Shown piece after piece: positions 9,921 through 61,846 of a stretch of DNA of 64,000 bases. The translations under genes were made by a program, and so were the position numbers. How positions within the stretch are numbered: the first letter of the stretch is position 1; every line of letters starts with the position of its first letter. The DNA comes from an uncultured candidatus Porisulfidus sp. (GTDB lineage: Bacteria; Pseudomonadota; Gammaproteobacteria; Poriferisulfidales; Poriferisulfidaceae), in assembly GCA_965204575.1 (NCBI GenBank), contig OZ241993.1:768001-832000 (forward strand). Reading direction: 5' to 3'. A model generated the notes under the pieces. It saw nothing but the letters and a program-made list of their open reading frames with translations, ran no database searches and was not told the DNA's origin.

Positions 9921-10256
9921 TTGGATATCACATTTCGAAGCCGCAGGCTCAAGAAGGTTTTCGATTTGGAATCCGAACTCCAAAGAGCCTACGGGAAGCC
10001 GTTGGCAAGAAAAATCATGATGCGCCTTGCGGTTTTGAGGGCCGCGCCGAATCTCAGTTCAGTGCCGGTCAAGCCACCGGACAGGAGACATCTCCTCAAA
10101 GGTGACCGAAGTGGCCAATTTGCAGTGGATTTAGATCAATCATGCCGCCTTGTTTTCAAGCCCGACCATGACCAAATAATACTGGCCGAAGATGGAGGAA
10201 TTGATGCAACACAAGTAACCGCGATAAAGATTCTCGAAGTTATTGATTATCATTGA
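9921..10256 (+). CDS. higB: HigB (RelE/ParE superfamily) toxin
   Basis: ITFRSRRLKK..YG..ARKI..RL..HLLKGDRSGQFAVDL..RLVF..EVIDYH; toxin-first gene order. Confidence 0.85.
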   Translation: MDITFRSRRLKKVFDLESELQRAYGKPLARKIMMRLAVLRAAPNLSSVPVKPPDRRHLLKGDRSGQFAVDLDQSCRLVFKPDHDQIILAEDGGIDATQVTAIKILEVIDYH

Positions 10257-10270
10257 TGGAGGCAACAATT

Positions 10271-11362
10271 ATGGGAACCACGCCTAATCTATACAATCCA
10301 GACTACTCGGTTCCGCCGGGATGGGTTTTGGAGGAACATATAGAAGTACTAGGCATCTCGCATGCTGAATTCGCGCGCCGGTGTGGGCGTTCGCCAAAAC
10401 TGATCAGCGAAATCATCACGGGCAAGGCCCCGCTTGAACCAAAGACGGCACTTGAGTTCGAAAAAGTCCTCGGTTTGGACGCTAGGATTTGGCTGGGAAT
10501 CGAATCCAATTACCAGCTTCATCGGGCGCGTGAGGCTGAAAATGAAATTGCCTCGAAACGTGACAGGTGGGCAGAAAGTTTTCCAGTCCGCGAACTGGTA
10601 AAACGAGGATATATACAAAAGCCAGGATCAACCGCAGATGCCGTGTCCGAGTTATTGGCATTCTTTGGTGTTGGCTCGATTGACGCATGGACCACACGTT
10701 ATGCGGCCGTCAATGTTGCCTATAGGCACTCTCAGAGTTTCTCAAGTGATGAAAAAGCACTAGCCACGTGGCTTCGTCTAGGTGAGCTTGAGGCCGAAAG
10801 CCAAAATTGTGAGAAATACAGCCAGGCCCGGTTTAAGGATGCAACGCGACAGATTCGAAGTTTAACGTGCGAGCCTGTAGGGCAAGCCACCCTGCGTGCG
10901 ACTGAGTTATGTAATCAGGCGGGCGTTGCACTTGCACTGGTACGTCCTTTGCCCGGGACCGCGTTGAGTGGGGCAGCTAGATGGCTTTCTCCAAAGAAGG
11001 CATTAATTCAGTTGAGCGCACGCCACAAGTCCGACGATCACCTTTGGTTCAGTTTCTACCATGAAGCCGCACATATCCTGCTTCACAGTAAGAAAGACAT
11101 TTTTGTTGATGCTGTGAGGAACGGAGATACAGGTGCTGAGAAAGAGGCAGACGAATGGGCATCGAAAACTCTCGTACCCAAAACCGAATGGGAACGATTT
11201 ATCGCAACATCTCCACGTAGTAGGAGCGCAGTTGAGGTATTTGCTGATGAGCAGGGAGTGGCCCCCGGCATAATCGTGGGGATGCTTCAACACCAAGGGA
11301 TATTGCCTTGGACACACCTGAACGGTCTTAAAGTAAAGCTAGAATGGCGGAACTCGGAATAA
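10271..11362 (+). CDS. higA: HigA antitoxin (Xre HTH) fused to an ImmA/IrrE-type metallopeptidase
   Basis: PPGWVLEE..ISHAEFARRCGRSPKLISEII HTH; WFSFYHEAAH (HExxH) and EKEADEWA; RBS GGAGG before ATG 10271. Confidence 0.88.
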   Translation: MGTTPNLYNPDYSVPPGWVLEEHIEVLGISHAEFARRCGRSPKLISEIITGKAPLEPKTALEFEKVLGLDARIWLGIESNYQLHRAREAENEIASKRDRWAESFPVRELVKRGYIQKPGSTADAVSELLAFFGVGSIDAWTTRYAAVNVAYRHSQSFSSDEKALATWLRLGELEAESQNCEKYSQARFKDATRQIRSLTCEPVGQATLRATELCNQAGVALALVRPLPGTALSGAARWLSPKKALIQLSARHKSDDHLWFSFYHEAAHILLHSKKDIFVDAVRNGDTGAEKEADEWASKTLVPKTEWERFIATSPRSRSAVEVFADEQGVAPGIIVGMLQHQGILPWTHLNGLKVKLEWRNSE

Positions 11363-11478: not shown

Positions 11479-12208
11479 GCAACAAGGTATGCCAGACGAA
11501 GGGCAGGGTCATATCGTATACGACCCCGAGTGGCTTTCGGAAATAACGCCGGAATTTTTCGACCCGCACTACCTGAGCGTACAGGGAATGCTGTCCAGTT
11601 TCGGCAGCGGGCGGGGGACGGTCTGGTTATTTCGGCATGAAGGAAAAGAATTTGCGTTGCGGCACTACCATCGGGGGGGCAAGGTGGCCCGGTTCCTCGG
11701 AGACCGCTACCTGTGGGTGGGTTTGAATCGGTCGCGCCCGGCACGGGAGGTCAGAATCTTGAGCCAGTTGGCAGGGCAGGGGCTGCCCGTACCCAGTCCA
11801 GTGGCCTGGAGGGTGATTCGCAGCGGCCTGATGTATCGCGCGGACCTGATCGTGACCCGGATTTCCCGCGCCCGCCCCCTCACCCAGATCTTGCGCGAGC
11901 GAGTCTTGGAAGTGGCCGAGTGGGAAGGTCTTGGGGCGTTGTTGCGCCGATTCCACGACTTTCAGGTCTGGCACGCCGACCTCAACCTGAGCAATATTCT
12001 GCTGCGTGCTCCGGATGATTTCTTCCTGATCGACTTCGACCGGTGCCGAATTCGTTCCGGAGGGCTCTGGAAGCGGCGAAACCTCAAGCGTCTCCACCGA
12101 TCCTGTCTCAAGGAACAGGCGAAGAACCCGGAGTTTCACTTCAGGGAGCAGGACTTCGAAGCCCTGTTGCGGGGGTATGCCCGCGGGGCGTCCGCGACCG
12201 GCTCGTGA
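11477..12208 (+). CDS. kdkA: 3-deoxy-D-manno-octulosonic acid (Kdo) kinase
   Basis: GSGRGTVW, LRHYHRGG, YRADL, HADLNLSNILL, LIDFDRC, NLKRLHRS. Confidence 0.93.
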   Translation: MQQGMPDEGQGHIVYDPEWLSEITPEFFDPHYLSVQGMLSSFGSGRGTVWLFRHEGKEFALRHYHRGGKVARFLGDRYLWVGLNRSRPAREVRILSQLAGQGLPVPSPVAWRVIRSGLMYRADLIVTRISRARPLTQILRERVLEVAEWEGLGALLRRFHDFQVWHADLNLSNILLRAPDDFFLIDFDRCRIRSGGLWKRRNLKRLHRSCLKEQAKNPEFHFREQDFEALLRGYARGASATGS

Positions 12209-13281
12209 TGCGACGGCGCGAATTTTTAGGCGTAGGCGGGGTTGCCGCGGCGACCGGATTGGGACGGGTCCGGCGGTCGGACGCCGAAGAACCGCTGCGC
12301 TGGAAGATGGTGACCGCCTGGCCGAAGAACTTTCCCGGCATGGGAACCAGTGCGGAATTTCTGGCGCAGTCCATCGGCGAGATGTCTGGAGGCCGCCTGC
12401 AGGTGCAGGTCTATGGTGCCGGCGAACTGGTGCCTGCGTTCGAGGTGTTCGATGCGGTCAGCCAAGGTGCGGTGCAGATGGGCCATGGCGTTTCCTATTA
12501 CTGGAAGGGGAAAAATCCGGCCTTCCACTACTTCTCCGCCTTGCCGTTCGGCATGACGGGCAACGAAATGAACAGTTGGCTGTACAAGGGGGGCGGCATG
12601 GAGTTGTGGGAGGAAGCCTACGCCCCGTTCGATGTCCTGCCGCTGGCCGCCGGCAACTCCATGGTGCAGATGGGGGGCTGGTTCAAGCGGGAAATCCATC
12701 AAATCGAGGACTTGAAAGGTCTGCGGATGCGCATTCCGGGGCTGGGAGGCGAAGTGCTGCGCCGGGTCGGAGTCACGCCCGTGGTGCTCAGCGGCAAGGA
12801 GCTGCTGGTGGCGTTGCAGACCGGGGCGATCGATGCGACCGAATGGATTGGCCCGTGGAACGACTTGGCGTTCGGCTTGCATCGCGCGGCGAAGTACTAC
12901 TACTACCCCGGTTGGCATGATCCCGGTACGGCGCTGGAGTTTTTGATCAACCGCCCGACGTTTGAAGCGCTTCCGGATGATCTGCAGGCTATCGTGCGGT
13001 ATGCCGCCACGGTGGCCAATGAGGATGTTGTGGCGGACTACCTCGCGCATAATAACGATGCACTGAAGATATTGGTCGAGAAATACCAGGTGGAGCTCCG
13101 GCAATTCCCGCCGGAGGTACTGCGCGTCCTGCGCCGACATGCCGAGGCGGTCATCGAGGAGGTGGCCGGGGGCGACCCCTTCGTCCGGCGGGTGAACGAC
13201 AGCTACCAGGCGTTCTATGCCCGGGTGCGGGACTGGACCGCCATCTCCGAGAAGGCGTACCTAGACACGAGATCGGGGTGA
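12208..13281 (+). CDS. TRAP transporter solute-binding protein (DctP/TakP-like), Tat-exported
   Basis: MRRREFLG twin-arginine signal, WKMVTAWPKNFPG, LKGLRMRIPGLGGEV, YYYPGWHDPG. No dctQM in the window. Confidence 0.92.
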   Translation: MRRREFLGVGGVAAATGLGRVRRSDAEEPLRWKMVTAWPKNFPGMGTSAEFLAQSIGEMSGGRLQVQVYGAGELVPAFEVFDAVSQGAVQMGHGVSYYWKGKNPAFHYFSALPFGMTGNEMNSWLYKGGGMELWEEAYAPFDVLPLAAGNSMVQMGGWFKREIHQIEDLKGLRMRIPGLGGEVLRRVGVTPVVLSGKELLVALQTGAIDATEWIGPWNDLAFGLHRAAKYYYYPGWHDPGTALEFLINRPTFEALPDDLQAIVRYAATVANEDVVADYLAHNNDALKILVEKYQVELRQFPPEVLRVLRRHAEAVIEEVAGGDPFVRRVNDSYQAFYARVRDWTAISEKAYLDTRSG

Positions 13282-13344: not shown

Positions 13345-16300
13345 TTAGGGCTGGGCGACATCGATCACGTGAATGGACACTTTGTCCGCTTCCTCGGGCG
13401 TCAGGGAGTCTTCCAGTTGGTGCTGGAGTTCATCAGGGCTGGTGGGGTGAGTCTTGGTTTCGGGGTTGCGGGTAGAGAATTTTTCGCCGAACCAGAACAC
13501 TAGGTAGATCCCGCGGCCCTCTGCGCCGGGAGCCCGGTTGTATCTGATGAGTTGTTCTCTGATTCCCTCCCACAAATCCTTGGAATGGCTTTTCTTGACC
13601 TCAATGGGGAGGTTGAGGTTTTTGTAGGATACCTGTATGTCGGCTCTCGTATTGTCCGCATGAGAGGCTTCCCGGTCCGCCTTGATGTCAAGAGGCATGA
13701 TTTTCTCCTGCAAGTCAGAAAGGAACGCGTTCCTGCATTCATCTTCCACCTTCGGGCTCCACTCAGGCGACTGATTCCAGTATTGGTGCCAGTCGTTGGT
13801 ACTGCCATCCCGTATTTTTTTGCCCATCTCACCGAAGTCTTCCAGAAGCAGCACGACCAGATCATCTACATTAGCTGGCCTCTTTTTATCCAAGGTTTGG
13901 AGAAGTTTGTTTATGTCGCAATGCGTGAATTCGGACTGGCGGCGGAGAGCGCGTTGTTCATCGACCGCGTCCTGGAGATGGATTCGCCACTTGGACAGGG
14001 CTTCGTCGGCGACTAGACGGCTGAGCGTTTCTGTTGCTATTGGCGAGGAATCGCCTGCCAAATGACCGATCAATTCGCGAATCAGGCCCGAAGCGGCCAT
14101 AGGAGGGGAATTCCAAGCTACATCCTCGTCAAGGGAAATGTGCCGAAAAGAAGAGCCAAGCAATTGAACGAGAGGTACTAGACATTTTCCCTTCAACAAG
14201 TCATCCCATTCCGGCGAGTTGCTGCTCTGACAGACAAATTCTGCGAAATATCTCATCCGTCGATCGTCTTTATGAAGATATGATTCCAATTGGTGGCGGT
14301 GAGTTTTTGGAGAGATGATAAATCTAGCAGCCAACCAGTAAACATGTTGGCCGATGTTCATGCTTTTCGTCTTTCGTGCCGCCAATTTCTCATTCAGAAG
14401 TTTCCGCAGGTTCGCGTGCTTGCAATGCAGCAGGGCTGCCGCGAGCAGATGTCCTAGCTCGTGAAGCTGCCGCGTGGTACAGCGGACCGGAAAGGATTTG
14501 AGCAGAGGCAGGGCTGCTAGGCTAGCGACTTTCACATGGGTGTCGGAGAAAGCGAGTTCGTATGAGTCGGCTAGGAATTCTTCTCCTTTCCGCATTTGGA
14601 AACGGATACGCCTGATGAGGATTTCAGCGACGAGATCAGGTCGCTCGGCAAGCAGGGATTTGTACCATGCCGGGCTGACTTCTCCGGGAAGATCATAATC
14701 GGCGAAGTAATGAAAAGCCAACGCACGCCGAGTTTGCTGATCTGCCGAGGGAGGGATCCCAGTTTCTTCCAATCCAGCCAGACAGGGATAAGTTAGTAAG
14801 TGGGGTCGGCCTTGTTTTGCGTGGCGGATAATCTCACTCACGCTCGGAGCGTCTTCATGCGAAATGGAATTTTTAAAAGATTCGAGTATCAATTGGACTA
14901 GATGAGAGTCGTTGTCCAGCAGGTCGCAGATTCGCTCCAGCGGCTGATCGCCCTCGACATCGTAGAAGCCGCCAAAATAGGCCCACGCAAGGTTGCTAAG
15001 AAGTCCCAACGGTCCGCGATTCTCGCGCAGTTCAGCCTCATGAGCCTTGACTTTTGCTATCCAGTTTTGGCTTAGTTGCTCCCGCTCTTGAAGATCCATA
15101 GCTATTCGCCGCTGCCGCGCTTCGATGTCCTTGAAGTGCTCATCGGGCAACCGGCAAACCAACATATCCTCAAGTGCCTTTTCCAATTCCGGATGTCTGA
15201 CGACCCGCATCTGGATGTCGTCCAGAGAAAGGTCGATCATAGTGTTTCCATCAAACAGAGCCCTGACAACTTGTCGGAGATAGAATTCTGCGGTTTTCGG
15301 ATTTTTGGACTGAATGGCTAGGTTGAGACACCAAGGCCAGAAGTCAAGAGCAGGCTCAAGTCCGAATAGCCAGTCTCCTGTTTCGTGTGAGAGCAATTTG
15401 AAGTTGTCGGTATCATTCCACTCCTCCACTCCGTCTTTAAAGATTTTCCGTTGTTTGTCCGGCTGAAGTTTGAACCAGCCATGAACGGACGATACAGTCT
15501 GTCCGAAAGAACTGCGCACCGTGTGCTGAATTTCAGAGCACCAGGCGGTTTCCAGCCAGTGGCGAAGATCAAGGAGGCTGATTGCTCTATCGGGCGTAGG
15601 GGAAAAAATCCCTTGGAGGATGGCAAGAAAAGTCCGAAATGTCCTGAAGCTCGCTTTCGAAAGATTGGGTTTTCTAGCGTCATTGACCCGGATGACCAAC
15701 TTGTTGAGGATATCGGTCAGTTGATCCGAGCGCAATTGTTTGACAAAGCGGTTGGCCCAGGAGGTATGGAAAGTCGCGGTGGAAGGTTGTCCTGAATCCA
15801 TCAGGCAGTCCAGTGCCTCATCGGCGGGGATATGTTGGGGGAACAGTTCGGTTAATACGGTATCCAGTAGCCTGCCGTGGAAATCCTGAACTGTTCCCTC
15901 CTGAATCTCAAGAAGCAATTTTTTCAGGAGATTACCTGCTTTCGTAGTCCCGGCGCAACTTTGTATGAGTACGTTGAGGGCCATTTCCTTGTTGATTGGC
16001 CAAGACTTCTCGTCCCGGATGATCTTCAGCAGAGAGTCTGAGACTTCCGGTAAGTCCGACCCATAGTGAAGAGCCTTAAGCACGAGGTAGCGAAAAGACT
16101 GTTCGTTATAGCTTGGCGCTGGCTGTCTCAATGCTTCTTTGAGATATTCATGCAGGTCGGGGCCGGCTAGGTCGCGCAATGGGGTGTTTCGTTGCGCGAT
16201 GTCGATGTATCGAGGATTGTCGTTTGTTTTTTCCTCCAGTTTGTCGAACAGCAGGAGTTTATCTTCAGCATTAAAAGATTCAACATCGCCATAAAGAGCA

Positions 16301-17415
16301 ATCTCTAGGGGGATGTTCTCGATCAGTTTTTTCCGTCCTGAGTGACTGTACGTTGCGAACCAGGCGGCAACATTCTGAAGTTTTGGCACTACAGCTTTAT
16401 CCGCACCGGACATTAGAGAAAAAATCCGATTGGCAGAAAATCCTTGTTTCACTTGCTTGGCAAGGTAGCGGCCGCCCAAGAACTCTGCGGTGCATTGATG
16501 TTCAGGGGCAATTCGCTCTTGCCCTGGGACCCGAGTGAAGGCCCGGGTTCGCACGACCTGTTCGCCGTCGGCCCTTGAAACGACTTTCTCCAACGCAGGA
16601 TAATCTTTATTGGGTTTGCCCAAGGGCAGTGTGTAGCCTGCGCTACCGCTCAGTAACTGAACAGCACACATGCGGCCAGCGGTATCCAGCAGCATGTCCA
16701 TGCCAGCTCGATTGGTTCCAGCAATAATGTGCTCCTCGTTTGTTTCGGACAACAAGGTTTCGCACGCCTTCTCGTATACTTCCCTGTGATTGGTTGGCCA
16801 GCTGCCATGCTCGTCGACCGACTCCGCCAACAACAATAGGGCTTTGGGGTTCTTCAGGAACCCGCCAAGGTCATGAGCACGTGCCTGAGAGATGAATTCT
16901 TCAGGATTTCCATTTTTGGGTTTGCCATGCCGGCGGAGGACTTCCGGGATGCTGGCATCAGTCAACGGGTCGAGCTCCAGCAATGAAATTTCAATGCCGA
17001 GTTGTTCCAGTTTTCGCCTGTCGTTGGCCCCCAACCAATCAATCGTACGACAGGACAGGCGGAATTTGGGGAGTGCAAGTTTCTGAAGTTTTCCGCGGAT
17101 TCGGTCAATGGGCTTGCGCCCATCTTTCGCTCCAGCCCGCATTTCATCCAGGCCGTCGATGAACAGAAGTTTGTCACGCCATCGGGAATTCTTCATCCTT
17201 ATGAAGTCCCGTGCCGAGATGTACTCGCCGTTCTCGTGGAAATCCGCTTCCTGCCGAAAAGTGGTGGTTTTCCCGGCTCCGGGCGAGCCAAGCAGGACAT
17301 AGGCGGGACAGTCCCGATATTCGGCCAGTCGCTTGGAGGCAGTTTCCGGGCTGCCCTCCGAGTCCTCTTCAATGATGGAGACGGTGCGGGGGACAGGTTT
17401 AATCATTTTCGTCAA
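13345..17415 (-). CDS. NACHT/STAND NTPase with a long helical region and C-terminal PD-(D/E)xK nuclease-like domain
   Basis: Walker A LLGSPGAGKT, Walker B LFIDGLDE, FRLSCR sensor, NPKAL; C-terminal RADIQV..IEVKK..QL.RY..GIYLVFWFG; 1356 aa. Confidence 0.82.
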   Translation of the reverse strand: MTKMIKPVPRTVSIIEEDSEGSPETASKRLAEYRDCPAYVLLGSPGAGKTTTFRQEADFHENGEYISARDFIRMKNSRWRDKLLFIDGLDEMRAGAKDGRKPIDRIRGKLQKLALPKFRLSCRTIDWLGANDRRKLEQLGIEISLLELDPLTDASIPEVLRRHGKPKNGNPEEFISQARAHDLGGFLKNPKALLLLAESVDEHGSWPTNHREVYEKACETLLSETNEEHIIAGTNRAGMDMLLDTAGRMCAVQLLSGSAGYTLPLGKPNKDYPALEKVVSRADGEQVVRTRAFTRVPGQERIAPEHQCTAEFLGGRYLAKQVKQGFSANRIFSLMSGADKAVVPKLQNVAAWFATYSHSGRKKLIENIPLEIALYGDVESFNAEDKLLLFDKLEEKTNDNPRYIDIAQRNTPLRDLAGPDLHEYLKEALRQPAPSYNEQSFRYLVLKALHYGSDLPEVSDSLLKIIRDEKSWPINKEMALNVLIQSCAGTTKAGNLLKKLLLEIQEGTVQDFHGRLLDTVLTELFPQHIPADEALDCLMDSGQPSTATFHTSWANRFVKQLRSDQLTDILNKLVIRVNDARKPNLSKASFRTFRTFLAILQGIFSPTPDRAISLLDLRHWLETAWCSEIQHTVRSSFGQTVSSVHGWFKLQPDKQRKIFKDGVEEWNDTDNFKLLSHETGDWLFGLEPALDFWPWCLNLAIQSKNPKTAEFYLRQVVRALFDGNTMIDLSLDDIQMRVVRHPELEKALEDMLVCRLPDEHFKDIEARQRRIAMDLQEREQLSQNWIAKVKAHEAELRENRGPLGLLSNLAWAYFGGFYDVEGDQPLERICDLLDNDSHLVQLILESFKNSISHEDAPSVSEIIRHAKQGRPHLLTYPCLAGLEETGIPPSADQQTRRALAFHYFADYDLPGEVSPAWYKSLLAERPDLVAEILIRRIRFQMRKGEEFLADSYELAFSDTHVKVASLAALPLLKSFPVRCTTRQLHELGHLLAAALLHCKHANLRKLLNEKLAARKTKSMNIGQHVYWLAARFIISPKTHRHQLESYLHKDDRRMRYFAEFVCQSSNSPEWDDLLKGKCLVPLVQLLGSSFRHISLDEDVAWNSPPMAASGLIRELIGHLAGDSSPIATETLSRLVADEALSKWRIHLQDAVDEQRALRRQSEFTHCDINKLLQTLDKKRPANVDDLVVLLLEDFGEMGKKIRDGSTNDWHQYWNQSPEWSPKVEDECRNAFLSDLQEKIMPLDIKADREASHADNTRADIQVSYKNLNLPIEVKKSHSKDLWEGIREQLIRYNRAPGAEGRGIYLVFWFGEKFSTRNPETKTHPTSPDELQHQLEDSLTPEEADKVSIHVIDVAQP

Positions 17416-18622
17416 ACCAGTGGCGGGCCGGGACGGACAGAAATTCCTCGAACGAAACTCCTCCCGTGCCGACTACCATCGTATCCGCGGACGGAAACCG
17501 TTTCTTGAACATGGCCAAGCCGGAGACGCTTCTTTTTCGCCCTCCGCTTTTCACCTCTATGGCCAAGAGCCTATTGCCGTGTTGGAGGATGAAATCCACT
17601 TCATGAGGAGATTCCCGCCAGTAGTGAACCTTGATGTCGGGGGAGCCGGAGTTGCACAGGTGCGCACCGACGACACTTTCTACCAGGTGCCCCCAAAAAC
17701 TCCGGTCTGCTTTTGCTTCTTCAAAGGTGTACCCGCAATTCGCGGTCATGAGCGCGGTATCCAGAACTAGGAGTTTTGGGCTGGACCTTCTGACCCGTAT
17801 GACGTTTCCTGCATATTGTTGGAGTCCTGTCAGCAGGCCGGTACGTCCCAAGAGTTCCAGATAGTCCGCCAATGTCGTGACATTCCCCTTGTCGTCAAGC
17901 TGACCAAGCAGGTTCCTGTACGACACGATCTGCGCGCTGAACTCCGACCCGATTTCGAACAGTTGTTTGAGCAATGCCGGTTTGTGGATTGCCATGCGTT
18001 CGACAATGTCCCTCTCGATGTTCGTTTCGATGATTGCGCTCCGGACATATTGCTGCCATCGTTCCGGCCGATAGATCAGGGGGGCTGCACCAGGGTAACC
18101 TCCAAAGTAGAGATACTGGTCCAGGCTGAAGCCGAACGCCTCGACCATTTCCGGGTACGACCACTGGGTCAGGCGGATGGTCTCGAAGCGTCCCGTCATG
18201 CTTTCGCTGAGCCCCTTCTGCATCATCAATGGCGATGAGCCAAGGATGACGACACGGAGATTGCGTTCGTGGAAGCGGTCGGCATCCCACAGGGCCTTGA
18301 CCGCACTGGACCATTCCTGGATTCGCTGGATCTCGTCCAGTACCAAGACATGCCCGAGCTCCGAGTTCTCGGCTTTTTTCCGGGCTTGCTGCCAGATTTT
18401 TTCCAGCCATAAGGCGTCCTTGGCAATGTGGGCTGGCACGGGGTCGTCGCCGCGCACATAAGTGGAGCGGACATCCGTTCGTTCCAAGGCCTGTTGGACC
18501 AGCGTGGTTTTTCCGGTCTGGCGTGGTCCTGTCACCACGATCATATGCCGCGGTGGTTTTTCTGGACGCTCCTCAATCCTCTCCAAAAGGATTGACAATT
18601 GGCTGCGCTGAAACTGGCTCAT
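17399..18622 (-). CDS. AAA+ ATPase (AAA_14) with C-terminal DUF4143
   Basis: GPRQTGKTT, LVLDEIQ, LGSS, ESMTGR, YFGGYP, ESVV, EVDFI..AIEVKS. Confidence 0.9.
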   Translation of the reverse strand: MSQFQRSQLSILLERIEERPEKPPRHMIVVTGPRQTGKTTLVQQALERTDVRSTYVRGDDPVPAHIAKDALWLEKIWQQARKKAENSELGHVLVLDEIQRIQEWSSAVKALWDADRFHERNLRVVILGSSPLMMQKGLSESMTGRFETIRLTQWSYPEMVEAFGFSLDQYLYFGGYPGAAPLIYRPERWQQYVRSAIIETNIERDIVERMAIHKPALLKQLFEIGSEFSAQIVSYRNLLGQLDDKGNVTTLADYLELLGRTGLLTGLQQYAGNVIRVRRSSPKLLVLDTALMTANCGYTFEEAKADRSFWGHLVESVVGAHLCNSGSPDIKVHYWRESPHEVDFILQHGNRLLAIEVKSGGRKRSVSGLAMFKKRFPSADTMVVGTGGVSFEEFLSVPARHWFDEND

Positions 18623-18690
18623 GCATATATAGTACCTATCCTAATAATTTTGTCAAATATAGTACTAATTTTTAGTCTTTATATATAGTA
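18623..18690 (-). promoter_or_regulatory. sigma-70 promoter (probably leaderless) with three ATATAGTA repeats
   Basis: Minus strand TTGACA(18656-18651)-N16-TACTAT(18634-18629)-N6-ATG; ATATAGTA at 18627, 18657, 18683. Confidence 0.7.
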
Positions 18691-18729
18691 AGATATTGAT
18701 GGATAACAATTTATATATTATCTAATTCC

Positions 18730-19980
18730 TTATGTTATCACGGAATATCGGCGCAGGGTCTCCACGTAGAGCTTGATTAATTGATTCCTGTCGCGGACGT
18801 GAACCTGCGCCTGTACACCGATGCGTTCCGCCTTGTCCGGGTGCTCCAGCCATTGTGAAAAAACCTGTCCAAGTTCGTCGACATCCTGCACCTGTCGCAG
18901 CCCGTCACAGTCCAGAAGGGCCTGAACCTCTGCCTCGAAATGATCGGTGTGAGGCCCGACCACACAGGCTTTGCCGAGCATTGCGGGTTCCATCACGTTG
19001 TGTCCCCCGCGCGGGACTAAGGACCCTCCCACAAACACGAAGGCGGCATGCCGCATCCACCACAGCGCTTCGCCCAGGGTGTCCGCCAGATAGGCCTGAT
19101 CGTCCGGGCGGGGTTGGCGGTCGCGGGAGTGCAGGCCGGCTCGCAGGCCGAGCGTTTCCAAGTGCTTCAGGATTTCCGGAGCGCGATCCGGATAGCGTGG
19201 CATCAACACCAGTAATTTGCCCCGGGGATCGAGCGTCTTCCATAATTTTGCGATCAACTTCTCCTCGTCTTTGTGCGTGGATACGGCCAGGATGTAAGGG
19301 CGTTGAATCGGGGCGCCGTCGGGGATGTCGTCGATGGCGGCTGCGTACTTGATATTGCCCAAGTTCTCGATCCGGTCGGGGGGTGCTCCCAGTGCGGCGA
19401 AGCGTTCGGCATCTTTTTCGCTTCGTGTCAGGATGCAGTGCAGTTGCTGTGCCGCTTGGCGCAATGCGGGGCGCAACGGGAAGGGGGGATTCTGCGTCCG
19501 CTGCGAGAGACGGGCGTTCACCAACGCCATGGGAATGTCCAACCGACGGGCCGCGTGAAAGAAATTCGGCCATAACTCGGTCTCGACGATCAGGATGGTT
19601 TTAGGATTCAGCCGTTTTAACCAGCGGCGAACCACCGAGACATGGTCTAAAGGGAAATAGATACAGGGGATTTCCGGCAGCAACGTGCGTGCCATACGCC
19701 GCCCAGTCGGAGTTCCGACACTGATGAAAAGATTGTGCTCGTTTTCAAGCAGTTCCCGTGCCAGTGGCAGGACTGCGCGGACTTCGCCAACCGAACAGCA
19801 GTGCAGACAGATTCGGTCTTTCAGGTCTGTCGGCAATCCGCTGGCATAACGCTGGCGCAGGTAACGCCTGCCGCCGTCGCGCAGAGAGCGCGATGCAGTG
19901 TACAGAAACGCGGGAATAGCGGCCGTGAATGCAAGCGCGCGATAGGTTAGGGGGGCGCGGCTTTCCAGTTCCGGTTTCAA
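18730..19980 (-). CDS. waaA: Kdo transferase
   Basis: LHCCSVGEV, YFPLD, IVETELWPN, NARLS, GNIKY, FVGGSLVPRGGHNVMEPA. Confidence 0.95.
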   Translation of the reverse strand: MKPELESRAPLTYRALAFTAAIPAFLYTASRSLRDGGRRYLRQRYASGLPTDLKDRICLHCCSVGEVRAVLPLARELLENEHNLFISVGTPTGRRMARTLLPEIPCIYFPLDHVSVVRRWLKRLNPKTILIVETELWPNFFHAARRLDIPMALVNARLSQRTQNPPFPLRPALRQAAQQLHCILTRSEKDAERFAALGAPPDRIENLGNIKYAAAIDDIPDGAPIQRPYILAVSTHKDEEKLIAKLWKTLDPRGKLLVLMPRYPDRAPEILKHLETLGLRAGLHSRDRQPRPDDQAYLADTLGEALWWMRHAAFVFVGGSLVPRGGHNVMEPAMLGKACVVGPHTDHFEAEVQALLDCDGLRQVQDVDELGQVFSQWLEHPDKAERIGVQAQVHVRDRNQLIKLYVETLRRYSVIT

Positions 19981-58831: not shown

Positions 58832-60118
58832 TCACTGATTCGGCTCCGACCATAAGCTGCTGACAGGCAGGGCAAACAGGTTCTCCCCGAATGCAAGTTT
58901 TTGTTCTCCGAGGTAGAAGAGGATGCAGGTGACCGGCCGAGTCTTGCCGGGACCCTCGGTCGAGAACCAAGCCATGTGGCCGAAGTCTTGCCAACTCACC
59001 GAGGAGGCCGCTTTGACCTCAAAGGCGACCAGGCGGTTCCCGCTCTCGGCGAGGACATCGATTTCGCGGCCTCGCTGGTCGCGCCAGTGATAAAAATTGA
59101 AGCCATGCTCCTGATAGGGTTCGGATCGGAGAAGTTCGGCGAATACGAAACTCTCCAGCAGTCCGCCCAACGCTGTCGGGTTGGCATCGGCGTCGAAGGT
59201 TTCCGGGGTCAGGCTGCGTAAGGCTGCCGCCATTCCAGTGTCCACGAAATGGTTTTTGGCGCTGCGGATTTCGCGGGAATGCTCGCCCGACGCCCAGGCA
59301 CCAAGCTTCACGATGATAGAAAGCCGGAGCAGGACATCCAGATACTGTTCAATCGTCAGGCGCTGTACGCCGATCAGTTTGCAGAGTTGTGCGACATTAA
59401 GTATTTCGCCGGTGCGTACAGCCAGTTGCGCAATCAGTTTTCGCAATGCGTCAGTTTTCCGGACGCGAAGCAGGTCCGCGACATCACGGTCGACGATGGT
59501 GTCGACATGATCCCGGTAGGCGGCCTGTCTCGGTTTGAGGGGAATGCTCCTGGTTTCTGGAAAGCCGCCTCTGAGTATGAGGTCGATGTAATCGGCACGC
59601 GGGGTGGATTCCGGTTCCGGCAGGTCCGGCAGGTCTGGGTTCTTCGAGATGGCCCAGTCGAGAATGCAGGAAGGCGGGCGTGATTTGATTTCCGCGACCG
59701 TCAGGGGCCAAAGCTTCAGCATCCGCATGCGGCCGGCAAGCGAGTCTGCCACCTTCATGGTAGCGAATACATTGGAAGATCCGGTCAGGACGAATTGGCC
59801 TGCCTGCCGGCGCGCATCAACCATCATCTTGATCGCAAGCGCCATGTTGCCCGATCGTTGTGCCTCATCAATGACCAAGGGCCGATCCTCAAGCCGGTCA
59901 GTCAATGTGCCGATTTGACCAACCGGATCCCTTGCCATGGCATCGAGAACCGCCGGATCATCCAGCGTGATGAACCTGCCCGTCTGCAGGATGTCCCGGA
60001 CCAACGTGGTCTTCCCGACCCGTCTCGGACCGGTGACGTTCACCACGGAGGAATAAGCCAGAGCCGACCGAAGTTCGGCAATCATGTGGCGGGGCAGGAG
60101 ATGATTTTGGTCAGTCAC
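58832..60118 (-). CDS. AAA+ ATPase (AAA_14) with C-terminal DUF4143, second copy
   Basis: GPRRVGKTT, VIDEAQ, LTGSS, DSLAGR, GGFPE, DTG, EIDV..FEVK. Start uncertain (GTG 60118). Confidence 0.9.
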   Translation of the reverse strand: MTDQNHLLPRHMIAELRSALAYSSVVNVTGPRRVGKTTLVRDILQTGRFITLDDPAVLDAMARDPVGQIGTLTDRLEDRPLVIDEAQRSGNMALAIKMMVDARRQAGQFVLTGSSNVFATMKVADSLAGRMRMLKLWPLTVAEIKSRPPSCILDWAISKNPDLPDLPEPESTPRADYIDLILRGGFPETRSIPLKPRQAAYRDHVDTIVDRDVADLLRVRKTDALRKLIAQLAVRTGEILNVAQLCKLIGVQRLTIEQYLDVLLRLSIIVKLGAWASGEHSREIRSAKNHFVDTGMAAALRSLTPETFDADANPTALGGLLESFVFAELLRSEPYQEHGFNFYHWRDQRGREIDVLAESGNRLVAFEVKAASSVSWQDFGHMAWFSTEGPGKTRPVTCILFYLGEQKLAFGENLFALPVSSLWSEPNQ

Positions 60119-60328
60119 TCGGAACCCGATTCCGGTGGACGAACGCCTGTCTGGCGGCAATGGGGAAAATTATACTATAAATGTGGTGAAAGTGATAGTA
60201 TAAAGTCAGGTAAAATTATAGTTAGTGCATGGTTAAAGTGATCGTTTATAGAAAGGGCTGGCATTTCCTTCCCCCACGCGACCGAAAACGGATTCTCCAG
60301 AGACATCGCTTTGGCAGTGGTCCAAAGC

Positions 60329-61696
60329 TCAATCCGCCCTGCGGTCCTGCCGGGTTTTCCAGGCATTGAATTGCGGCAGGCGCAAGTGATACCGGGCCAG
60401 CACACCTTCGTGCAGACGGCGCAGTTCCTCGATCACCAGTGCGGCTAGGTCTTCGTGTTCGGATGGTTTCATTCCGGTCGGAATGGCTTTTTCTACAGCG
60501 GTAACCGTTTCGGTCTCCGGGCTGAGAACCACTTCCCGGACAATTCGCTTGACGGCTTTTCCGTGTCGGAGACGGAAGGGGTCCGGTTCCGCCAGGTCCT
60601 GCCGGAGAGCCCGGTACTCTCGCACGGACCGTTCGTAAGCCCAGAGATAGAGATCCCTCAATAGTTCCACCCGTGTCATTTCGTACACGCCCAAGGTGGC
60701 TTGACTGTATGCGGAATCGGGAACGTCGAGAAACGTCAGCGGGCACAGGTTCGCACGGACCAGCGGAAGGTTTGCGGCGAGGCGCGAAGTGCGCTTGTTC
60801 ACGTCGGAGAACGGCTGGAGGTAGGGCAGGTGCACCATCATGAAGAATGACTGCTCGAACGGGTCCGAGATCTGCCGCGCCTTGGCCAGCAGGGAGTCCA
60901 GGATTTCGCTGAGGTGCATCTCGCCGGACACCGGTCGATAGACACTCTTGCCGATTTCGACCTGGTGTCGCCGGATTCTCCCTTCGTCGTCGGGATTCGG
61001 AAGCAGGTTTTCCGACAAGGCGCCGTGCAGGTTGAACAAGGTGTAGCGATTGAAATCCATGGCCCCGGTGTTCTCCACGAGCAGTTCGATGGCCGCCTTG
61101 TGGTTCAGGATCATCTGGGTCTCGGTCGCGGCCTTCCCTTCGGCCGCCTTGCCGTGCTGGATGAGATTGAGCGTGTCCAGTCGGCTGTACGTGTTTCCTT
61201 CCAAATGGCTGGATGCCCACGACAGGTCGATCAGGAAGCGGTTCAAAACACTCCTGCCGTGGGTGCCGGCCGGCCGGGATGCCTGTCCGGTATCGCCCAT
61301 TCTCCGCAGTTGCTGCCGAATCGGGGCAGGAAGATAGTGACTTGTGTTTGGTTCGTAGACATCAAGAAAATCTCGCTGATACCCGACGGGAGACCGGGCT
61401 TCGAGCGGCTGGCTGATGTAGTGGGCGATGTCCTGACTGTCCGGGGACAGGGGGATGTGCTTCGGCTGGTCGTCAAATCCCCCCTGTGCCGTGCCCGGAC
61501 TCTGCGCCGGAAGGGCCAGATATTTCCGTGAGCGGCCCTCGCCTTGCGCAAGGGCCTTGCCCTCGGCGACCAGCCGGCTCAGATGGCGCTGGGCGGTTCT
61601 CCTCGTCGCTTCGGGAGACACGGCCAGCAGGTCGGAAACCGACATCGGCTCCGACGATTTGAGTAGGATCTCGTGAATCCGGGACAGACTGTCCAT
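60329..61696 (-). CDS. Fic-domain protein with N-terminal HTH
   Basis: RRTAQRHLSRL wHTH, SSHLEGN, variant Fic motif QPFSDVNKRTSR; start ATG 61696. Confidence 0.88.
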   Translation of the reverse strand: MDSLSRIHEILLKSSEPMSVSDLLAVSPEATRRTAQRHLSRLVAEGKALAQGEGRSRKYLALPAQSPGTAQGGFDDQPKHIPLSPDSQDIAHYISQPLEARSPVGYQRDFLDVYEPNTSHYLPAPIRQQLRRMGDTGQASRPAGTHGRSVLNRFLIDLSWASSHLEGNTYSRLDTLNLIQHGKAAEGKAATETQMILNHKAAIELLVENTGAMDFNRYTLFNLHGALSENLLPNPDDEGRIRRHQVEIGKSVYRPVSGEMHLSEILDSLLAKARQISDPFEQSFFMMVHLPYLQPFSDVNKRTSRLAANLPLVRANLCPLTFLDVPDSAYSQATLGVYEMTRVELLRDLYLWAYERSVREYRALRQDLAEPDPFRLRHGKAVKRIVREVVLSPETETVTAVEKAIPTGMKPSEHEDLAALVIEELRRLHEGVLARYHLRLPQFNAWKTRQDRRAD

Positions 61697-61846
61697 AAAA
61701 ACCTTCCGCCTGAATGGCGCGATTATAACAGAAAATGGCACAATAATGCAAGAGGGCTGGCGCAAATATGGCGCATTTACTTTTATTCGCGCCATATTCC
61801 AGGTGGTATTGGACGGGATTCGGGGCAGGAGAAAACCGCCCCGGTT

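Follow-up and report, generated by a model that had tools for sequence, protein, structure and literature searches.

A PDC-S01-type ATPase-nuclease gene overlapping an EruA-like receptor-nuclease gene in an uncultured Porisulfidus: a candidate two-gene anti-phage cassette

The receptors Erebus, Hypnos and bNACHT64 have been grouped as Avs10, and both phage protection and activation by the phage major capsid protein are reported for representatives of this group (Lee et al., 2026, PMC13581612). As described, Erebus/Avs10 receptors are self-contained sensor-effectors. The proteins of a second family, PDC-S01, join an ATPase to a PD-(D/E)xK domain and are listed as a frequent single-gene candidate for defence; one survey ranks the family fourth in abundance among defences across all prokaryotes and describes validation as pending for most PDC families (PMC12988326). 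Both families meet in the locus described here. The window, i.e., the whole stretch of DNA analysed, comprises 64,000 nucleotides (nt) from an uncultured candidatus Porisulfidus sp. (positions 768,001 to 832,000 of contig OZ241993.1, assembly GCA_965204575.1), and on its minus strand a small gene (gene A, 17399..18622, 407 amino acids (aa) from an ATG start) overlaps the beginning of a large one (gene B, 13345..17415, 1356 aa counted from a TTG start). Gene A encodes a PDC-S01-type ATPase-nuclease and gene B a receptor-nuclease related to EruA, where we take the family names EruA and HyoA to correspond to the Erebus and Hypnos systems. On balance, and by a modest degree, we lean towards reading the two as a translationally coupled anti-phage cassette, in which an Erebus/Avs10-type receptor would cooperate with a PDC-S01-type partner captured once.

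Gene B matches the NCBIfam model NF058535 (antiphage_EruA) from end to end (E = 1.8e-241, 804.9 bits, aa 27-1353 on positions 15-1317 of 1318), and its nearest clusters in the ESM Atlas are named "NACHT domain-containing protein" (1322-1423 aa, score 0.99). Because this score lies under the equivalog cut-off of the model (1000 bits), we file the protein as EruA-like, that is, as a member of the homologous family rather than an EruA equivalog. Among its clade mates, the same model gave 1026 bits for L062, 997 for L020, 942 for L063 and 878 for a paralogue in the source genome, while the HyoA model matched gene B at 1e-39. A Pfam scan of gene B returned nothing significant (NACHT weakly, E = 0.04), and a sequence search of the PDB with its N-terminus gave 0 matches at E ≤ 1. 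Judged by these matches, gene B is a divergent member of the described Erebus/Avs10-type family: it shares with Erebus/EruA the length (~1320-1430 aa), the order of NACHT, long sensor and C-terminal nuclease, and the E..D..ExK..Q signature of the latter. It differs in belonging to a clade separate from the four over-cut-off members sampled and in its operon with a PDC-S01 ATPase-nuclease, a partner that is missing beside those over-cut-off and plasmid-borne members that were examined; where Erebus/Avs10 receptors are described as self-contained, gene B is overlapped by the AAA_14/DUF4143 gene upstream.

In gene B, GSPGAGKT (aa 43-50) forms Walker A and LLFIDGLDE (aa 83-91), of the pattern hhhhDGhDE, forms Walker B; the two motifs lie at 17143..17289 on the minus strand. 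An alignment of 18 family members shows no variation at G46, G48, K49, D87, D90, E91, R123 and H306, of which R123 would be the sensor-1 arginine and H306 the winged-helix histidine of NACHT proteins. Since Walker A starts at aa 43, an N-terminal effector domain is absent. The middle region (~aa 400-1130, 14026..16218, minus strand) is a putative ligand sensor, by analogy with the published description of the Avs10 family (PMC13581612), and is poorly conserved between paralogues: in 50-aa windows, identity to the paralogue in the same genome is 0.10-0.34 over aa 401-850, as against 0.36-0.50 in the NACHT domain and 0.42-0.50 in the nuclease. At the other end of the protein, the residues of a PD-(D/E)xK motif (E1249, D1259 in RADI, E1272-V-K1274 in IEVK, and Q1288; 13552..13671, minus strand) are invariant in 18/18 sequences, and as these include members above the EruA cut-off we consider the C-terminal nuclease the probable effector of the whole EruA family.

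Structure comparison points the same way. The AlphaFold2 (AF2) model of the last 230 aa of gene B has a predicted local distance difference test (pLDDT) value of 85.5. With this tail Foldseek found nothing at E ≤ 0.001 (best SfsA at 1.8e-3, then Can1, Hjc and EcoT38I), and for that reason a VIA-align wide search was used, in which the top rows were almost all PD-(D/E)xK nucleases, at Z-scores of 5.5-8.1 that are middling taken alone: BstYI (Z 8.1, root-mean-square deviation 3.8, 140 aligned), Can2 (8.0), PaqCI (7.8) and BglII (7.5), with McrC, NucC, HamA and SduA as further neighbours. The only PADLOC match of gene B at E ≤ 0.1 was to LmuA (0.0021), on the nuclease tail. Avs1-4 are alike in principle: they too are STAND NTPases, in which a nuclease effector is combined with a sensor, built of repeats or helices, that recognizes a conserved phage protein. 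That effector is N-terminal in Avs1-4, unlike the C-terminal nuclease of gene B.

Gene A carries the Pfam domains AAA_14 (2e-26, 93 bits against a cut-off of 27) and DUF4143 (1.5e-27, 96.7 bits against 28.1) and matches sub-model PDLC04791 of PADLOC's PDC-S01 over its full length (2e-160, aa 4-403 on positions 2-394 of 395). By these matches it is a member of the catalogued candidate family PDC-S01, with the same build of ATPase and PD-(D/E)xK domain, and DUF4143 is itself listed among the PD-(D/E)XK families (PMC3424549). Alignments of 14 and 16 homologues show as invariant the K38, T39 and T40 of Walker A (aa 32-40, GPRQTGKTT; 18503..18529, minus strand), the D96 and E97 of Walker B, and the nuclease residues E315, D343 (in EVDF) and E356-V-K358 (in IEVK; 17549..17680, minus strand). 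The AF2 model (pLDDT 72.4) combines an AAA+ domain with an alpha-beta-beta-beta-alpha-beta core near the C-terminus, which bears the nuclease residues on a helix (307-325) and two strands (340-348 and 351-358); its middle is poorly predicted (pLDDT < 50 over aa 198-287). Foldseek matched the model to generic AAA+ proteins only (RFC, Cdc48 and ORC, 4e-8 to 1e-6), as did a sequence search of the PDB (E ≥ 0.03). Literature searches on DUF4143 and COG1373 brought up neither a function nor a partner of the STAND type.

These results bear out much of what the first-pass annotation, made from the DNA letters, had said of the two proteins. A P-loop and a PD-(D/E)xK-type tail are present in both, and invariant in the family alignments; Walker A of gene B does begin at aa 43, where it had been placed; and the description of gene B as an antiviral receptor of the STAND/NACHT type that ends in a PD-(D/E)xK nuclease is supported by the end-to-end EruA match and the nuclease-like structural neighbours. 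Its claims of novelty fared less well. The receptor is not undescribed, given its whole-length match to antiphage_EruA, and the small gene, presented as part of an undescribed system, belongs to a catalogued candidate family. Two further suggestions about gene B were rejected: the reversed domain order is real but not new, an N-terminal NACHT domain followed by a C-terminal nuclease being the standard order shared by the whole EruA family, over-cut-off members included, and a possible kinship with Avs2 is not supported, the Avs models of PADLOC having remained silent at E ≤ 0.1.

Gene A and gene B overlap by 17 nt if gene B is read from its TTG (to 17415), as had been stated, and by 8 nt if it is read from an ATG at 17406, three codons downstream, which is conserved in 4/4 orthologues (L001-L004) and lies within the last codons of gene A, in the stop/start overlap ATGATTAA (17399..17406, minus strand). 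The AT-rich spacer upstream of gene A (107 nt, 18623-18729) contains a sigma-70-like site that is the putative promoter of both genes (18629..18656, minus strand), with a -35 element TTGACA at 18656-18651, a 16-nt spacer and a -10 element TACTAT at 18634-18629, matching the consensus at 10 of 12 positions. TTGACA, together with AAATTAGTA just upstream of it, is invariant in 5/5 orthologous loci, and nothing comparable was found ahead of gene B, so that the idea of a single shared AT-rich promoter stands. The ATG of gene A follows the -10 element by 6 nt, and the messenger RNA of the two-gene unit is therefore probably leaderless or nearly so. The two genes are thus arranged as if co-transcribed and translationally coupled, while PDC-S01 is catalogued as a single gene (PMC12988326).

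The pairing recurs beyond this site. Four close relatives carry it at the same position (the L001-L004 orthologues), which is not independent support because they form one lineage. The source genome itself (1.82 Mb, one contig, with 10 DUF4143 genes in all) contains a second, deeply diverged pair on the minus strand at G000:C1:1316057-1321308 (locus L015 7974-13309), between a MutY-like gene with methionyl-tRNA synthetase (MetRS) and an MmeI-type restriction-modification (RM) gene; compared with the first pair, identity is 33% for the receptor and 53% for the partner, and the two genes overlap by 19 nt. Of 401 genomes sampled evenly across the phylum, 31 gave a match to the EruA model (E ≤ 1e-20), four of them above the cut-off. 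A gene A-like (P0001-like) gene stood directly upstream of an EruA-like gene only in G049, G085, G243 and G121 (the last found from the partner's side) and at the two loci of the source genome; in this sample there was none upstream of the four over-cut-off EruA genes or in a second, partnerless clade. Viral contigs yielded 10 loci with EruA-like genes, two of them with the partner.

On a receptor tree with HyoA-like proteins at the root, every receptor then known to have the partner fell in one clade (SH-like approximate likelihood ratio test, SH-aLRT, 100; 12 rows, one state change), and the two pairs from viral contigs, added later, fell in the same clade as predicted (SH-aLRT 99, 15 rows). 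Within this clade of 15 rows, the partner is present in 13 of 14 assessable members (one row was not assessable), as against 0 of 14 assessable members outside it. Partners that occur in pairs also group together (SH-aLRT 81) and divide into the same three sub-lineages as the receptors. The arrangement is kept down to ~26-36% receptor identity, always abutting or overlapping, and across five or more unrelated genomic contexts, in which the genes next to the pair are, by lineage, waaA/dctP, MutY-like and MetRS/MmeI-type RM, peptidyl-prolyl isomerase/L25-Pth, Fic/Na-H exchanger, and HicB-like genes. The AAA+/DUF4143 gene is thus a conserved rather than a chance neighbour, as the earlier pairing of the two had implied, albeit one confined to a single clade of EruA-like receptors. 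No sharp signal emerged from a search by clade-wise conservation for a partner-specific receptor region, and a co-fold of the gene A product with aa 770-1356 of gene B (the C-terminal 587 aa only) scored 0.00, which weighs neither way. Neither the pairing nor the palindrome described below was found in the literature searched, a search that did not reach the key source papers or the largest supplements of PMC13581612, and the terms Avs10, DUF4143, Erebus and AAA_14 are absent from those of its supplements that were in readable form. The fixed pairing in one EruA clade is possibly the undescribed part of this locus.

Taken together, it is tempting to speculate on how such a cassette might work. 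Gene A, which would supply the promoter and the translation start region, may have been captured once in a branch of the receptor family and then inherited and moved with the receptor as a unit. During infection, the middle region of gene B would bind a conserved phage protein, for which analogy with Avs10 makes the HK97-fold major capsid protein the likeliest candidate. The NACHT domain would then oligomerize in an ATP-dependent manner and switch on the C-terminal PD-(D/E)xK nuclease, whose degradation of DNA would abort the infection. In this scheme gene A would cooperate with the receptor, as a helper or as a second effector, and would be more than a mere neighbour. The locked clade offers a way to ask whether receptors resembling nucleotide-binding leucine-rich-repeat (NLR) proteins use helpers, and a concrete handle on what PDC-S01 does.

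Several observations weigh against this reading. Gene B scores below the EruA equivalog cut-off; its putative sensor is the most divergent part of the protein, and the capsid trigger is drawn solely by analogy with the family; and the two genes are often found apart. Over-cut-off and plasmid-borne receptors have no partner (plasmid-borne relatives, at 25-32% identity, showed no such neighbour in three annotated regions), so that this type of receptor evidently works alone elsewhere, and inside or next to the paired clade itself the L174 receptor is without one. The partner type, for its part, is mostly solitary: when metagenome contigs were searched with the partner, 80 loci were recovered, 52 of them with at least 1 kb downstream, and just 3 of these 52 have an EruA-like receptor abutting or overlapping. 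In another 46 the downstream side holds no receptor and no overlapping hsdR, and at three metagenome loci (L071 2368-5412, L083 6188-9340 and L077 2400-3710) the DUF4143 gene shares 4-29 nt with the beginning of the hsdR gene of a type I RM operon, in the same geometry as with the receptor. In the source genome, too, a third PDLC04791-type gene (G000:C1:563422-564603, L061 5405-6616, plus strand), 51% identical to gene A, is solitary, with no receptor. Given this mostly solitary habit and the like overlaps with hsdR, overlap with a downstream defence gene is by itself no proof of a shared mechanism. These separate occurrences would suit two independent single-gene defences that share an operon, a PDC-S01 "embedding" gene and a solitary-type receptor kept together only by linkage and joint transfer, as would the definition of PDC-S01 as a single-gene candidate and the solitary occurrence of EruA-type receptors in two other clades; the three hsdR loci resemble the genes recognized through "guilt by embedding" in type I RM or Hma operons, as outlined in the survey (PMC12988326). 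What speaks for a bond between the two genes is that their arrangement, unlike the scattered one of those embedded genes, holds across an entire clade and travels as a unit of two genes. The pairing arose a single time and was kept in all but one of the assessable clade members, through deep receptor divergence and unrelated contexts, with gene trees that agree in sub-lineages, whereas unlinked genes would be expected to separate more often over such depth. We therefore consider mere independence quite possible, though on the whole somewhat unlikely, and retain the cooperating cassette as the reading that we favour.

A different role for gene A, as a DNA-binding regulator of the operon, is raised by a palindrome, TGAGTA-N4-TACTCA, that precedes PDLC04791-type genes (loci L062-L141, L053, L054, L173 and L180). 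Among the metagenomic genes of this type, 75 of 78 have it no more than 150 nt ahead of them, and the upstream windows, 12,971 nt in all, contain 78 matches vs. 7 in 477,196 nt elsewhere. Some loci have two or three copies ~22 nt apart, the palindrome also precedes the paired genes of lineages other than that of the window, and in the source genome's second pair (own-2) and the L062 and L063 pairs it abuts the putative -10 element. The only perfect sites in the source genome (G000:C1:1321329-1321344 and 563383-563398) lie upstream of its other two PDLC04791-type genes. This conserved sequence is a probable operator overlapping the promoter of PDC-S01-type genes, and hence a regulatory site open to test; as it travels with the gene across very different hosts, its simplest, and probable, binder is the gene's own product. 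From there it is a short step to gene A being mainly an ATP-dependent repressor or licensing factor, with the receptor as the only killer. Against this, the middle of gene A, where a DNA-binding domain would be, is the part that is modelled poorly, its invariant nuclease residues would be needless in a pure regulator, and the window lineage, unlike most of its PDC-S01 relatives, has lost the palindrome while gene A remains intact. The palindrome is absent at 18623-18729, the best matches in the lineage have 4-5 mismatches, a level reached by 45-97% of shuffles and thus not beyond chance, and the strong TTGACA promoter takes the place of the palindrome. A purely regulatory gene A accordingly seems improbable to us. 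A fuller version of the cooperating cassette would make the PDC-S01 AAA+ nuclease a true helper in a sensor/helper pair, binding the palindrome, setting expression, and being recruited or unleashed by the activated Erebus-type receptor, with PDC-S01 as a general executor or regulator module captured by sensors such as Erebus-like STANDs and type I R subunits; we offer it tentatively and consider it unlikely in this full form. Hardly credible, finally, is that the unit is not defensive at all and instead serves housekeeping or selfish ends, for instance in the repair or processing of DNA or as an addiction cassette, and only looks like immune genes. Its place among genes for the lipopolysaccharide (LPS) core and the moderate conservation and synteny of its orthologues would fit such a role, but the full-length homology is to a family named antiphage by NCBI and reported as phage-triggered (PMC13581612), the site is polymorphic within one genus, the GC content is below that of the flanks, and other copies adjoin RM genes or lie on prophage or viral contigs.

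The locus has the character of an accessory insertion. GC content is 0.48-0.58 over 13500-19000 and 0.60-0.63 in the flanks, and in the border stretches read there was no integrase or tRNA. TolC and WaaA (Glycos_transf_N, 1e-49) are encoded upstream of the unit; downstream and convergent with it come dctP (12043-13281, plus strand; DctP family match 3.5e-54), then the genes for Kdo kinase and a heptosyltransferase. At the corresponding junction in 16 genomes of the genus, the pair lies between waaA and dctP in five, and the waaA|dctP site is empty in another five, with the genes ~24-36 nt apart and nothing between; in three of these empty-site genomes WaaA is 92% identical to that of the window. 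The unit is thus located at dctP and waaA, as first described, though it sits between these core genes and does not interrupt either. In the remaining six, waaA adjoins kdkA as in order-level relatives, which presumably is the ancestral state. We interpret the unit as accessory, a defence cassette that occupies a gap of variable content within the LPS-core gene cluster. The source genome is small and rich in defences, and for this genome alone the result is mostly a gain in annotation. The waaA|kdkA junction behaves as a hotspot that has taken up at least three different inserts.

Further features of these loci are recorded here in their own right. In part of the genus, dctP is itself an addition at the convergent waaA|kdkA junction (loci L148-L160). 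The L174 context is prophage-like, beside a phage baseplate gene and a tetratricopeptide repeat (TPR) gene. The third PDLC04791-type gene of the source genome is followed by open reading frames (ORFs) of 146 and 295 aa with no Pfam match, and near it, on the opposite strand, are ORFs of 435, 1014 and 536 aa that correspond, by size only, to type I RM subunits. At 58832-61795 of the window (minus strand), a further PDC-S01 gene, which matches a sub-model other than that of gene A (PDLC04790, 1.5e-131), stands beside an ORF with a weak SoFic match (1.6e-13). A second insert of lower GC content lies at 9921-11362 (plus strand), between the heptosyltransferase and Kdo kinase genes, and comprises an ORF of 111 aa that matched no family, together with a protein of 369 aa with helix-turn-helix and Peptidase_M78 (ImmA/IrrE-like) domains that matches PADLOC PD-Lambda-2_B (1.4e-37); relatives retain only fragments of this insert.

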